In this document: positions 11,924 through 17,375 of the stretch, in pieces | Numbering within the stretch: position 1 is the stretch's first letter | Layout: every line of letters begins with the position of its first letter | Source of the DNA: a virus | Taxonomy: Duplodnaviria; Caudoviricetes | Reading direction: 5' to 3' (one strand) | DNA: 34,558 nt | Virus record (IMG/VR): IMGVR_UViG_3300020042_001134 | Location: 1 to 34,558 of that record | Translations under genes and position numbers: made by a program | The notes under the pieces: generated by a model | Database searches by the model: none | Seen by the model: the letters and a program-made list of their open reading frames with translations, nothing else | Told to the model about the DNA's origin: nothing

Positions 11924-12059
11924 TGTTGCAGTTGTTGCCGTAACAGCAAGTTGTGCAAGTCACCATACGCCCACCTGACATATAAGTGTGCGTTGTGCAA
12001 GCTGCATAAGCTGCGGTAGCTGACATTGCCAGCACAATTCCAATCAGATACTTTTTCAT
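11910..12059 (-). CDS. small secreted cysteine-rich peptide (49 aa; not in ORF track)
   Basis: MKKYLIGIVLAMSATAAYA-ACTTHTYMSGGRMVTCTTCCYGNNCNTTCF; Sec signal with AxA site, 6 Cys, ATGA coupling to upstream gene, AAGGA SD. Confidence 0.8.
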   Translation of the reverse strand: MKKYLIGIVLAMSATAAYAACTTHTYMSGGRMVTCTTCCYGNNCNTTCF

Positions 12060-12256
12060 GTTTTATCCTTAATTAAGTAATAACGAGCAAAACGAACTTC
12101 ACCTTCATCAATCATCTTGGTCACTATGTTGTGGCCTCGTTGCTTGAGTTTAAAAATAATATCGGCAAGCCGTGTTACACGGTAAAGCATAATGGCTTCC
12201 CAGCTAGTAATAGGGTTTTTTGTAAGATGCGTCAATACCTGGTCAGTTTTAGTCAT
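12056..12256 (-). CDS. small winged-HTH protein (true start 12256)
   Basis: PITSWEAIMLYRVTRLADIIFKLKQRGHNI phage wHTH pattern; ATGA overlaps on both sides. Confidence 0.75.
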   Translation of the reverse strand: MTKTDQVLTHLTKNPITSWEAIMLYRVTRLADIIFKLKQRGHNIVTKMIDEGEVRFARYYLIKDKT

Positions 12257-12714: not shown

Positions 12715-12743
12715 ATATTAAGCTAACTTAACAATCAATACAA
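12715..12743 (-). promoter_or_regulatory. leftward sigma70 promoter (distal)
   Basis: TTGTAT-17 nt-TAATAT on the minus strand. Confidence 0.7.
12718..12731. promoter_or_regulatory. operator TTAAG-N4-CTTAA (perfect)
   Basis: TTAAGCTAACTTAA overlapping the -10 and spacer; one of four copies. Confidence 0.7.
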
Positions 12744-14327: not shown

Positions 14328-14891
14328 TTATTTTGCTCCCGCAAGTTGAACTTTGATCCCATCGTACATAGCTTTCAAGACTTCTTTCTGCGAATCAGGC
14401 GCAGATTTGTACCATTTGGCAAAACACGCTTTTAAAGCCTCTAAATCGGTCTGTGCCGCCATTTCGTCTACTGCGTAATCCATGTCTATCGTTACGGCTA
14501 TTGGCGGCTTAGGCAGCGTTTTTACAGCGGCTTCACCATCATCGTCAGCCGAAGCAACGCAAAGCGCCGTTTGAATTGAGTACCGTTTTGCGTAACTTAA
14601 CGCCGAGCCGAAGCCCTGACTGTCTTGTTTGCTTGCAGGTACAAACAATTTGCCAAACGACATTTCTTGACCTGATTCGTGAATCAACACGGTTTCAACA
14701 CAAACACCGCCTTCTGCATCGTGTGTTTTTTGCACAATAGCCAATCCGTTTCCGGCAAGATGAGGTCTTATGGCATCTATGACGGAAGCAAGCGAACTGT
14801 ACGAAGATTTAAAGTGGGGGTTTTTACTATCTTTTGCTGCGTGGTTCATAGCAGCCTGGGCGGAAACTAATGCTTTTGCTAATTCTTTCAT
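14328..14891 (-). CDS. erf: ERF-family ssDNA annealing protein
   Basis: KDSKNPHFKSSY, LIHESGQ, QGFGSALSYAKRY and DDDGE motifs. Confidence 0.92.
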   Translation of the reverse strand: MKELAKALVSAQAAMNHAAKDSKNPHFKSSYSSLASVIDAIRPHLAGNGLAIVQKTHDAEGGVCVETVLIHESGQEMSFGKLFVPASKQDSQGFGSALSYAKRYSIQTALCVASADDDGEAAVKTLPKPPIAVTIDMDYAVDEMAAQTDLEALKACFAKWYKSAPDSQKEVLKAMYDGIKVQLAGAK

Positions 14892-14934
14892 TTTTGCACC
14901 TGTATGTAATCCTGACGGGTATGTCAGTAGCTAG

Positions 14935-14963
14935 ATATTAAGGCATCTAAACAAATGTGTCAA
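14935..14963 (-). promoter_or_regulatory. leftward sigma70 promoter (PL-like) with imperfect operator at 14938-14951
   Basis: TTGACA-17 nt-TAATAT on the minus strand; TTAAGGCATCTAAA operator copy. Confidence 0.8.
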
Positions 14964-14977
14964 ATACAAAGTAATTA

Positions 14978-14993
14978 TGTTAAGATTGCTTCA
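14978..14993 (+). promoter_or_regulatory. extended -10 promoter and operator for a leaderless cro-like mRNA
   Basis: TG-T-TAAGAT ends 6 nt before ATG 14993, no SD present; TTAAGATTGCTTCA operator copy at 14980-14993. Confidence 0.55.
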
Positions 14994-15229
14994 TGAATAC
15001 AACAGAAATCATACAAACTTTAGGCGGGACAACAAAGGTTGCCAAATTGTGCGGCGTAAGTGTGCCAGCTGTCAGCCAATGGAAAACCAACGGAATCCCT
15101 GTGGATAAGCTCGTTTTTATGGGTGGGGAACTGGAGCGTTTGTCTGATGGCAAGTGGACTCGACGCAACGCTTTCCCTGACAACTTTACAATTATTTGGC
15201 CTGAGTTGCGTAAAAAACAAAAATCGTAG
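14993..15229 (+). CDS. Cro/YdaS-like HTH transcription regulator
   Basis: IIQTLGGTTKVAKLCGVSVPAVSQWKTNGIP HTH; divergent from the early leftward operon. Confidence 0.88.
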   Translation: MNTTEIIQTLGGTTKVAKLCGVSVPAVSQWKTNGIPVDKLVFMGGELERLSDGKWTRRNAFPDNFTIIWPELRKKQKS

Positions 15230-15234
15230 ATAAT
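15206..15234 (+). promoter_or_regulatory. sigma70 promoter at the end of cro driving the ncRNA region
   Basis: TTGCGT-17 nt-GATAAT. Confidence 0.6.
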
Positions 15235-15246
15235 TTGCACATCCCT

Positions 15247-15356
15247 TGGTCGGGGAGATAAAGCAATAAGGCTTCACATGGATACTCAGTAGGTTATTGC
15301 ACCTACCCGACCAGACCCCTTAAAAAAGGGTTGAGTATTCAGGTGAAGCCTTTTTT
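15247..15356 (+). ncRNA. c4/CI-type antisense RNA with upstream target sites and U-tract
   Basis: Outer stem AAGGCTTCAC/GTGAAGCCTT, inner GATACTCA/TGAGTATT, two internal hairpins; loop TTATTGC and linker CCCGACCA complement GCAATAA (15263-15269) and TGGTCGGG (15247-15254). Confidence 0.7.
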
Positions 15357-15370
15357 ATGTTTAAACGGAA

Positions 15371-15614
15371 CGCAGACCAAAGTTAGCTGCGGACAAAGTG
15401 GGACTCAGAACCCAGCCGAGTGTAGTACGTTGTGATCTGGAGGCTCTAACGACATACCAGCGGATCACGATAGCAAGCAGACTGGGGGATAGTGGATGGA
15501 ATACTGCACAAATAGGCGGCGAAGTTAGCACCTATTCCACGAATGGCTGACGGGTTCTGTGGCTCCGGAAAGGATACAGATTAAGGCGAATCTAGGTAGG
15601 CTAGGTTCGTCCAC
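15371..15614 (+). ncRNA. large structured non-coding element (unassigned)
   Basis: No plausible ORF; at least six helices, several with G-U pairs favouring a + strand RNA. Confidence 0.55.
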
Positions 15615-15644
15615 CAGACAGGATCAACAGTAAAGGGAGTAGTG

Positions 15645-15800
15645 ATGAATAAAGAGGAAGATGTTAAGTCGTTGCCTAGTAACTTAAAGGATTGGACTGA
15701 ATTACATTTAATTGAAACTTTTAAATTGACCAAAAAATTAGATTTGCGTGAAATAATTGCTACAGAGTTGGCAAAAAGAATTAAAGACAGCAAAAAATAG
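15645..15800 (+). CDS. hypothetical 51-aa protein (not in ORF track)
   Basis: GGGAG SD; MNKEEDVKSLPSNLKDWTELHLIETFKLTKKLDLREIIATELAKRIKDSKK. Confidence 0.6.
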   Translation: MNKEEDVKSLPSNLKDWTELHLIETFKLTKKLDLREIIATELAKRIKDSKK

Positions 15801-15801
15801 T

Positions 15802-15837
15802 TTGCTTTTTTTTACTCACAGGATTAAGCTATCTTAA
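15802..15837 (+). promoter_or_regulatory. rightward promoter with perfect operator
   Basis: TTGCTT-17 nt-TAAGCT; TTAAGCTATCTTAA at 15824-15837. Confidence 0.6.
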
Positions 15838-15849
15838 ACAAGGAACATT

Positions 15850-16002
15850 ATGAAAACATTGATCGAATGGTTAAGGGACAAGCTCAGGAAAGAGGATAGC
15901 AAAGAAAACGTTGAGCAGATTTGTGATTGTTGTGGACAAGTCTCAAGGCTTACAGACGGTTTGTGCGAATGGTGTGAACGATTTTACAAGGCAAATAAAT
16001 GA
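15850..16002 (+). CDS. small C4 zinc-finger-like protein (50 aa; not in ORF track)
   Basis: AAGGA SD; CDCCGQVSRLTDGLCEWC; ATGA overlap with the next gene. Confidence 0.7.
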   Translation: MKTLIEWLRDKLRKEDSKENVEQICDCCGQVSRLTDGLCEWCERFYKANK

Positions 16003-16199
16003 ACATTGACAAAGCGATTGAGATATTGCAATCAGGGCTAATTACGCAACAAGAGCAAACCGAACTAGCAAAGGTATTGCAAGCCAAGCGTGAGTGGGTT
16101 GGGCTGACTGATGATGAGCGAAACGAAATATACGAAACTCTTGATGCTTATGCTGATTTAGTTGCCATCGAAGCCAAACTACGGGAACGCAACACATGA
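15999..16199 (+). CDS. small protein with WxxLTxDE motif
   Basis: REWVGLTDDE...IEAKLRERNT; ATGA coupling. Confidence 0.75.
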   Translation: MNIDKAIEILQSGLITQQEQTELAKVLQAKREWVGLTDDERNEIYETLDAYADLVAIEAKLRERNT

Positions 16200-16828: not shown

Positions 16829-17004
16829 AAAATGATGACGATGACACACAATCATATATTGGACAGCGGAAGTGGATTGATTTAACAGAGGATGAAATCA
16901 TTGGACACACTTGTGAGTGTGTTGATGATGGAACTTTTGACATGAAATGCGCTATAACTTTTGCAAAATTTATCCAAGAAACTTTAAAAAGGTACAACAC
17001 ATGA
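16825..17004 (+). CDS. second WxxLTxDE-motif protein (59 aa; not in ORF track)
   Basis: GAGGAG SD; RKWIDLTEDE...IQETLKRYNT; ATGA overlaps at both ends. Confidence 0.7.
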   Translation: MKNDDDDTQSYIGQRKWIDLTEDEIIGHTCECVDDGTFDMKCAITFAKFIQETLKRYNT

Positions 17005-17375
17005 GCTTTGATGAGTTCTGGGTCAAATACCCTCGCAAAGTCGCTAAAAAGACCGCTATGCAATCTTTTGCCAAGCTCCCGATGGATGAGCAGGAATTAG
17101 CATTGGACGCATTAGAGACGCATTGTGAGTATTGGAAGCTAAAAGAGACAGCAACAGATTACATTCCGCATCCGTCGACTTGGCTTAACCAAGGACGGTA
17201 TTACGACGAACTGGATATGCAGCCTAAACAACCTAAAAAACCTGCGTTGCCTTGGTATTCGACAGAGCAAATGACGATGGACAAAGCGAGGGAGTTGGCG
17301 ATGACACCAAGACCAGGCGAGGACATGGGACAGTTTAGGGCTAGGATTGCCCAGAAAGTAGCGGAGGCCGTGTGA
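17001..17375 (+). CDS. replication-initiator-like protein, C-terminal domain only (start 17001)
   Basis: FDEFWVKYPRKVAK...YIPHPSTWLNQGRYYDE resembles the C-terminal domain of phage replisome organisers; ATGA coupling fixes the start. Confidence 0.65.
   Translation: MSFDEFWVKYPRKVAKKTAMQSFAKLPMDEQELALDALETHCEYWKLKETATDYIPHPSTWLNQGRYYDELDMQPKQPKKPALPWYSTEQMTMDKARELAMTPRPGEDMGQFRARIAQKVAEAV

Follow-up and report, generated by a model that had tools for sequence, protein, structure and literature searches.

An extended form of the RNA motif RF02932 occupies, between the cro-like gene and small early ORFs of a small tailed phage, an exchangeable slot that is otherwise filled by O-like and P-like genes. 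Strong comparative evidence indicates that this RNA substitutes for the protein initiator module: because it lies in the same slot as the initiator genes and is never found together with them, it likely starts the copying of the phage DNA in place of a protein. The window, that is, the whole stretch of 34,558 nucleotides analysed here, is a viral record estimated by CheckV to be 99% complete, and 18 DNA runs from freshwater metagenomes each contain at least 0.41 of its words. A preceding sequence-only reading had placed a candidate RNA-based replication system at the position of the initiator. That proposal now has strong comparative support, whereas the ColE1-like details attached to it fail, as described below.

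Table 1. Positions of the features discussed, in window coordinates
Feature	Positions	Strand	Basis or remark
Cro-like repressor gene	14993–15229	+	Pfam P22_Cro, E 6.5e-10; left landmark of the slot
Predicted sigma-70 promoter	15206–15234	+	TTGCGT-17-GATAAT; would drive leader and slot
Structured leader	15241–15356	+	Long stem and U-tract; left boundary of the slot
Two-hairpin 5′ module	about 15362–15420 (hairpins 15371–15414)	+	15371/15387 and 15399/15411; compensatory changes
RNA core, RF02932	15430–15555	+	83 bits against gathering threshold 49.4; covariation
P1	15430/15461	+	Part of the RF02932 core
PK1	15457–15460/15482–15485	+	Part of the RF02932 core; takes up the G5 tract
P2	15477–15480/15504–15507	+	Part of the RF02932 core
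PK2	15492–15496/15536–15540	+	Part of the RF02932 core
T-loop-like motif	15497–15501	+	Part of the RF02932 core
P3	15511/15531	+	Part of the RF02932 core
PK3	15524–15529/15546–15551	+	Part of the RF02932 core
3′ extension	15556–15625	+	Not in the Rfam model; P4 15556/15576, P5 15585/15601; flanked by duplicated word
Duplicated word, copy 1	15569–15575	+	In the P4 loop; 7/8 identity to copy 2
Duplicated word, copy 2	15618–15624	+	Just 3′ of P5; GC content falls afterwards
51-aa ORF in the slot	15645–15800	+	Variable among relatives; without family
Palindromic operator-like site	15824–15837		Right boundary of the slot
Stand-alone initiator C-terminal domain, 124 aa	17001–17375	+	phrog_270 positions 179–266 of 383, E 2e-17

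Fold and extent of the RNA

The sequence-only reading had recognised no family for the element. A covariance-model scan of the whole window against Rfam gives a single match, RF02932 (Betaproteobacteria-1; B1 in the following), aligned over model positions 1–120 of 120. As only this family passes, no known ribozyme family is matched in the scan, and other families in 14800–16100, at E up to 10, yield only sub-threshold noise. The family, which we take to come from a survey of 224 motifs and whose description presumably lists three pseudoknots, is typed in Rfam as Gene; sRNA, with no function given. The term “Betaproteobacteria” is absent from the main text of that survey (PMC5737381), the supplement of which may describe the gene context, and a literature search, with subscription journals outside its coverage, found nothing on the function of this RNA.

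The folding energy of the single sequence is not significant (plus strand z −1.46, with 16 of 200 shuffles as good; minus strand z −0.13), and the reality of the element therefore rests on comparison. A search with a core pattern found 77 viral loci and 58 genome loci (GTDB), the latter mostly in Burkholderiales or Rhodocyclales. The 126 loci with enough flank, including the window, were reduced to 84 representatives at 85% identity; one false positive and five truncated sequences were dropped, and 62 of the remaining 78 were aligned, those left out being mainly ones with long insertions. In this alignment a structure of 43 pairs has 87.0% of its cells paired, against 72.6% in shuffles and 32–45% in slid controls, and 32 of the pairs show double changes. 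No weight was given to seven invariant pairs of P3 and PK3 that fall within the search pattern or next to it; additional covariation of PK3 was seen in loci obtained without that pattern. Covariation supports all three pseudoknots and the 3′ extension. PK1, PK2, and PK3 are paired in 96.8%, 89.4%, and 100% of cells, respectively, with double changes, and the top covariation scores, with z up to 18, fall on the pseudoknots, P2, P3, and the new stem P4 (pair z 14–17; 91% paired; 4 of 4 pairs covarying). A covariance model of our own, with the window in its training set, matches 15422–15635 at 137 bits. The RF02932 unit is about 70 nt longer at its 3′ side than catalogued and ends in a word, a hairpin, and a second copy of the word.

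All helix arms quoted in the sequence-only reading, together with its run of five G, are present where it had placed them, and the region is free of ORFs as it had stated, with no ATG-started frame of at least 30 aa within 15230–15644. Among 13 close relatives, its helices 15430/15461 (110/110 cells paired, 12 double changes), 15511/15531 (75/78, 7 double), and 15371/15387 (40/44, 3 double) hold, as does 15585/15601 (134/138, no double and 15 single changes), the P5 of Table 1, whose register is variable and which is only 67% paired in the 62-homolog alignment. Its other pairings are replaced. The pairing 15420/15502 is broken in 28 of 88 cells, its 3′ arm pairing instead with 15477–15480 (44/52, 5 double); 15414/15544 is broken in 10 of 50, and 15546–15551 pairs instead with 15524–15529 (78/78, 6 double); the long-range or alternative pairing 15492/15608 has no double changes and 8 broken cells, the alternative being 15492–15496 with 15536–15540 (65/65, 6 double). 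The outer arm 15406/15552 could form (69/70, wobble changes only), but the compensatory changes are found in the local hairpin 15399/15411 instead (32/32, 4 double). What had been described as a single 250-nt element is made up of the RF02932 RNA with its 3′ extension and, ahead of it, a portable 5′ module. The two-hairpin module precedes three different RNA bodies and is missing from some B1 copies; on comparative grounds it is a separate portable unit and not part of the RF02932 core. The earlier argument that G-U pairs favor a plus-strand RNA gains support from a U-G/C-A swap and from a U-A/G-G loop swap that resembles a T-loop, and the core contains many invariant unpaired residues in addition to its T-loop-like motif.

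The duplicated word is 6–9 nt long and its two copies change in step. Both anchors are present in 47 of 78 representatives; in these, the two copies within a sequence match at 6.68 of 8 positions, compared with 4.75 of 8 across sequences (maximum 5.36 in 10,000 permutations), and an identity of at least 7/8 is reached in 28 of 47, against 5.5%. The cultured Acidovorax phage AP1 (OM049504.1) also has its word repeated and gene-free chromosomal copies of B1 retain the duplication; in one B1 copy, that of the clade member L150, the words are poorly matched. The complement of the word, searched for with 70 of the 78 representatives parsed, is not enriched in the 5′ part of the RNA (1/54, 2.4 expected), between the copies (0/54, 1.3 expected), or upstream (7/54, 4.7 expected), and is mildly over-represented at scattered sites 120–400 nt downstream (10/54, 4.3 expected). 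A third pairing partner inside the transcript was rejected, none being enriched, and the complement would thus as a rule exist only on the template strand. The purine fraction of the RNA tail is 0.63 against 0.55 and 32 of 40 words favor the hybrid, both against weak controls.

Exchange of RNAs and O/P genes in one slot

Relatives were gathered by three independent queries, the 124-aa protein, Cro, and the exonuclease. They yielded 115 distinct loci with a cro match, of which 81 with at least 900 nt downstream were kept and 34 shorter ones dropped. The slot contains B1 in 18 of these relatives, one of three further RNAs in others (R2 in 30, R3 in 24, R4 in 2), and a DUF1376 gene, matching “primosomal protein” PHROGs, followed by a P-like gene in 7; it holds both RNA and O/P in 0/81 and neither in 0/81. 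The swap is seen in near-identical phages. Through cro and the leader, L186 hardly differs from the window, and right after the U-tract at 15356 it turns into DUF1376; GenBank MW202520.1 makes the same switch, its next gene being annotated “replication protein P”, and a contig in run X22 also passes from the shared leader to DUF1376. A tree of the cro region, built from cro plus 150 nt with 76 rows, requires 25 changes of slot type where the minimum possible is 4, and strongly supported branches force at least 4 O/P changes and at least 9 B1 changes; since the phages are mosaic, this counts exchanges and not origins. In the converse direction, 77 DUF1376 loci (893 kb, 11 sharing the window's leader) contained no B1 by covariance model and no R2–R5 or 5′ module by BLAST.

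The exclusion extends to whole records. These include 43 that bear an RNA, among them AP1 and 28 IMG/VR records with a completeness of 90% or more, and were searched for DUF1376, HTH_36, phrog_270, and phrog_678. DUF1376 is found in 0/43, compared with 6/6 controls, and HTH_36 is above the cut-off in 0/49 records. Only frames of 116–168 aa match phrog_270, mainly to its C-terminal half, in 18/43. DnaB_C is seen in 0/25 records, O/P controls included, and a P-like protein in 0/19 RNA genomes and 2/5 controls. As the sequence-only reading had noted, there is no polymerase, primase, helicase, or full initiator in the window, either among its 54 ORFs compared with PHROGs or in the whole-record searches. 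It also has no homolog of O or P, genes that sister phages carry at this slot; a lambda-type origin has a full-length initiator gene with internal repeats, followed by P.

The elements that bound the slot are shared between both kinds of phage. The promoter ahead of the leader is below the scan threshold in the window; among the 81 relatives the best match upstream of the leader reaches at least 9/12 in 58, against 10/81 shuffles. In the leader (fold z −4.83), the 5′ segment 15247–15254 is complementary to the inner 15306–15313, and the two segments covary between relatives whose leaders differ strongly in sequence. It is a candidate attenuator family without an Rfam match. The sequence-only reading had made this leader a “c4-like switch” acting with the RNA, but it is near-identical in the O/P-carrying phages L186, L448, and MW202520.1, and would hence regulate the slot and not be an RNA-specific partner. 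On the right side, the operator palindrome follows the slot in 73/81 relatives, including 5/7 O/P phages, in which it lies 1075–1196 nt past the start of O. Operator-like palindromes occur in the window at 12718, 14931, 14980, and 15824 and are probably Cro sites, and neither a CI-like repressor nor an integrase was seen among the window's ORFs. Several relatives (L157–L174) have a further conserved non-coding insert of 150–250 nt with hairpins between cro and leader, where L181 has two tRNA-like stretches. The window also has a stand-alone HTH_39 winged-helix gene at 12056–12256 (minus strand), and L077 has a small gene resembling it upstream of the RNA.

The other RNAs of the slot are distinct from B1, and 14 loci of R2–R5 submitted to Rfam gave no match. 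R2 (L139:1850–2170; L145, L148, L154, L156–L173, and others) is a structured RNA of about 300 nt. R3 (L153:4800–5110, L228, L231, and others), also of about 300 nt and without an Rfam match in two loci tested, ends in four G-runs resembling a G-quadruplex motif, followed by A/T-rich DNA; complete R3 genomes have no match to DUF1376, phrog_270, a P-like protein, or DnaB_C. Compensatory changes were seen by eye in R2, where they are many, and in R3. No clear covarying duplicated word was seen by eye in either, and a model based on the word may therefore not cover all slot RNAs. R4 (L175:235–620, L437, L146) joins the window's 5′ module to a different body of 250 nt with short direct repeats near its 3′ hairpin. 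R5 (L526, L537, L541, L550, L554; 36 loci) has the 5′ module and about 330 nt that look unrelated and likewise end in word, hairpin, and word; five different words occur in 34 loci, 28 of which share one word. It is usually followed by a stand-alone initiator C-terminal domain.

A candidate RNA origin and its alternatives

That the RNA plays a part in replication initiation of some kind appears highly probable from this pattern of exchange. With moderate confidence we favor a narrower reading, in which the element would act in cis as an RNA origin, replacing O/P and needing no origin-binding protein to start replication; a guide-like pairing step by the word is a tentative addition, for which we put the chances below even. 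In such an origin, RNA polymerase starting from about 15206–15234 would read through the terminator-like stem of the leader, which would set the dose. The triple-pseudoknot core would fold during synthesis and hold the 3′ domain of word, hairpin, and word. In RNA form, one copy of the purine-rich word would then bind the template strand at the other copy, the template being the sole place with a complement, and this pairing would nucleate or lock a persistent RNA–DNA hybrid adjoining A/T-richer DNA. From the hybrid, synthesis would proceed rightward, with either a primer or an opened bubble as its start. The host would load the helicase, aided in some phages by a domain of the 17001–17375 type and elsewhere by a phage helicase and a Toprim primase. 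At its widest, the proposal is that small tailed phages repeatedly swapped their initiator for at least five structured RNAs (B1 and four without an Rfam match) that serve as self-targeting origins with a guide word of 6–9 nt and host enzymes, with the chromosomal copies as instances of this device that spread locally through self-primed duplication; taken as a whole this is possible, although we would not expect all of it to hold.

The protein partners of the RNA vary. The 124-aa protein of the window lies 1.4 kb downstream of the RNA and lacks the N-terminal DNA-binding half of the initiator. A Foldseek search with its model (pLDDT 89) gave nothing at E ≤ 0.001, and the best VIA Z is 5.8. 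Near-identical copies accompany B1, R2, R3, and once O/P, those with other RNA families being 92–94% identical, and complete R3 genomes have no such protein; it is possibly an accessory factor at most. Because these near-identical proteins accompany other RNA families, the word was rejected as an iteron read by this protein. Outside the clade, a Toprim_3 primase is the upstream ORF in 35/77 representatives, usually with its end about 100 nt ahead of the core anchor, and in AP1 the RNA is directly behind the primase. Stand-alone C-terminal domains of the initiator accompany the RNA there too, directly downstream of B1 in 6 loci, in one of which a DnaB-like helicase comes next. A T7-like primase-helicase is downstream in 2 loci, and phages with a helicase plus a primase also carry B1, so that the partners are not fixed. 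Among 73 neighboring proteins scanned, a subset of the ORFs, no N-terminal initiator family was found. A fixed coupling to the Toprim primase was also rejected, as only 5/80 primase relatives have B1 within 3 kb.

This variety bears on the possibility that the RNA initiates by scaffolding, mimicking or recruiting proteins at the origin (a host helicase loader or restart proteins, the C-terminal domain, or a phage primase), without priming or invading DNA. Scaffolding would produce the same exclusion between RNA and O/P, the invariant unpaired residues and the T-loop-like motif suggest a protein-binding fold, and stand-alone C-terminal domains follow B1 and R5. It nevertheless seems unlikely to us, since it leaves unexplained why both copies of a word that otherwise varies freely are kept identical, and since near-identical 17001–17375 proteins accompany entirely different RNA families and the stand-alone protein is absent from complete R3 genomes.

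Of the 58 GTDB genome loci, about 41 lie outside phage replication modules, as chromosomal copies of B1 without genes; a phage origin gives no explanation for them, and they count against the reading as an origin. They form a subfamily of about 450 bp with its own conserved promoter-like motif (L078–L135; Paraburkholderia, Caballeronia, and other Burkholderiales). Their neighbors are metabolic, transport, transposase, or defence genes (57 neighbors scanned), 31 loci have 20 distinct upstream flanks, and five genomes have 1–5 B1 matches each. Possibly they are a small self-spreading element or a host-captured copy. In one case (L121:6453–8168, minus strand) a gene for a 571-aa reverse transcriptase lies 1.4 kb upstream, and in L127 the RNA is followed, about 110–150 nt past the core, by some seven tandem, iteron-like units of 7–8 nt. 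A search of 72,556 plasmids gave one match, in a 1.5-Mb Burkholderia replicon, and thus no sign of small RNA-only plasmids. That the phage RNA is itself a selfish or trans-acting passenger (a mobile element, ribozyme, or small RNA) in a recombination-prone slot, replication starting elsewhere, for instance in a recombination-dependent manner through Erf, SSB, and exonuclease, would suit these multicopy copies, some of them degenerate or truncated and clustered within about 40 kb, as well as the Rfam type sRNA and the 75/80 primase relatives without B1 nearby. A passenger should, however, sometimes be found beside O/P or be lost, and the lack of any empty or doubly filled slot counts against it, as does the filling of the same slot by at least four RNA families; we give this view a low probability, slightly below that of scaffolding.

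Which nucleic acid acts is a further question, as the displaced top DNA strand could serve as a folded single-stranded origin or primosome site in which the word lets the slipped strand extrude P5. Slipped pairing is possible where direct repeats surround a hairpin, the element adjoins primases in the 35 representatives mentioned above, and the strand asymmetry gives no formal separation of RNA from single-stranded DNA. Pseudoknots, G-U pairs, and T-loop-like loops are typical of RNA, and the three pseudoknots, the frequent G-U pairs, the U-G/C-A swap, and the T-loop-like loop make action as DNA improbable, together with the promoter motifs ahead of both the slot and the chromosomal copies and a weak hint of a transcript. 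The latter is one metatranscriptome contig of 151 nt at depth 19, located inside the RNA and the sole cover in 19.9 kb, which is weak and comes from contigs, in a run itself found using this stretch; runs X20, X22, and X23 probably derive from DNA, with X21 scattered. No cleavage or ligation joints were seen among the metatranscriptome contigs. The minimum of the cumulative GC skew near 15 kb was rejected as a sign of an origin, as it coincides with the switch in gene strand. At fourfold sites G is in excess on the plus strand whichever way the genes are oriented (+0.063 against −0.204 in coding sense; p 3e-4), which fits rightward one-way synthesis but also rolling-circle replication from any origin, and it was not used. 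Very improbable, finally, is a cis-regulatory leader (attenuator or riboswitch-like) of downstream early genes, which would fit the position behind an early promoter and ahead of ORFs, but the gene that comes next differs among loci (a 51-aa ORF, an HNH nuclease, an initiator C-terminal domain, and others), downstream of the slot there is a separate promoter and operator, the RNA lies behind a primase stop in 35/77, and the loss of O/P would be left unexplained.

Relation to known replication systems

An orphan Rfam family is hereby given a specific, testable job, and near-identical phages exhibit a natural exchange in which RNA modules take the place of a protein initiator module; with AP1 as a cultured carrier, the idea can be put to a direct test. 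If the RNA origin is real, it would explain complete 34-kb genomes without a recognisable replication gene and would provide compact protein-free replicons, their specificity perhaps set by a short word. The likeness to RF02932 itself is a full-length match with the same conserved core; the differences are the longer 3′ side, the portable 5′ module, and the position as an allele of the O/P slot rather than as a free sRNA. Lambda-type O/P sister phages share the slot, leader, and downstream operator with the window, which differs in having no O, P, or iteron-bearing gene and only a stand-alone C-terminal initiator domain. The antisense systems of P1/P7 c4 and P4 CI have a structured leader behind an early promoter and short phage-specific repeated words, features also seen in the window; short loops in these antisense RNAs are complementary to repeated target sites. 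Here, in contrast, the complement of the word is not enriched upstream, the window and L138 have the same word with different leaders, and Rfam C4, c4-2, and c4-a1b1 give no match at E up to 10 in 14800–16100.

ColE1-type replicons have a conserved G-tract for hybrid formation and a persistent R-loop that RNase H cuts and Pol I extends. The sequence-only reading had likened the G5 tract of the element to that G-tract; here this tract is present in only 10/62 homologs and its bases are paired in PK1. The antisense control it had suggested by analogy, exerted in ColE1 by an RNA I complementary to the 5′ end of the primer, is likewise not borne out, with no minus-strand promoter starting within 15360–15650 in a sequence scan and no match to Rfam RNAI at E up to 10 in 14800–16100. 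The RNA is also shorter, about 200–270 nt instead of 550 nt, and differs in its triple pseudoknot, its duplicated phage-specific word, and its setting in tailed-phage genomes. Shared with ColE1 RNA II (PMC5043065) are the lack of an encoded origin-binding initiator and, as candidate starter, a non-coding transcript that folds and arises from an upstream promoter; unidirectional priming, too, would fit. The window's phage, in contrast to T4, encodes no helicase, primase, or polymerase, and has a highly conserved RNA fold; T4 origins combine a promoter with an unwinding element and T4's own replisome and are not known to have a conserved RNA fold. If the RNA-origin model holds, the mode of working would nonetheless resemble that of the T4 R-loop origins (PMC3016281). 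RNA-started replication would then extend from ColE1 plasmids and T4 to a widespread group of temperate-like and lytic tailed phages, with several independent RNA folds and, possibly, a new guide-like step.
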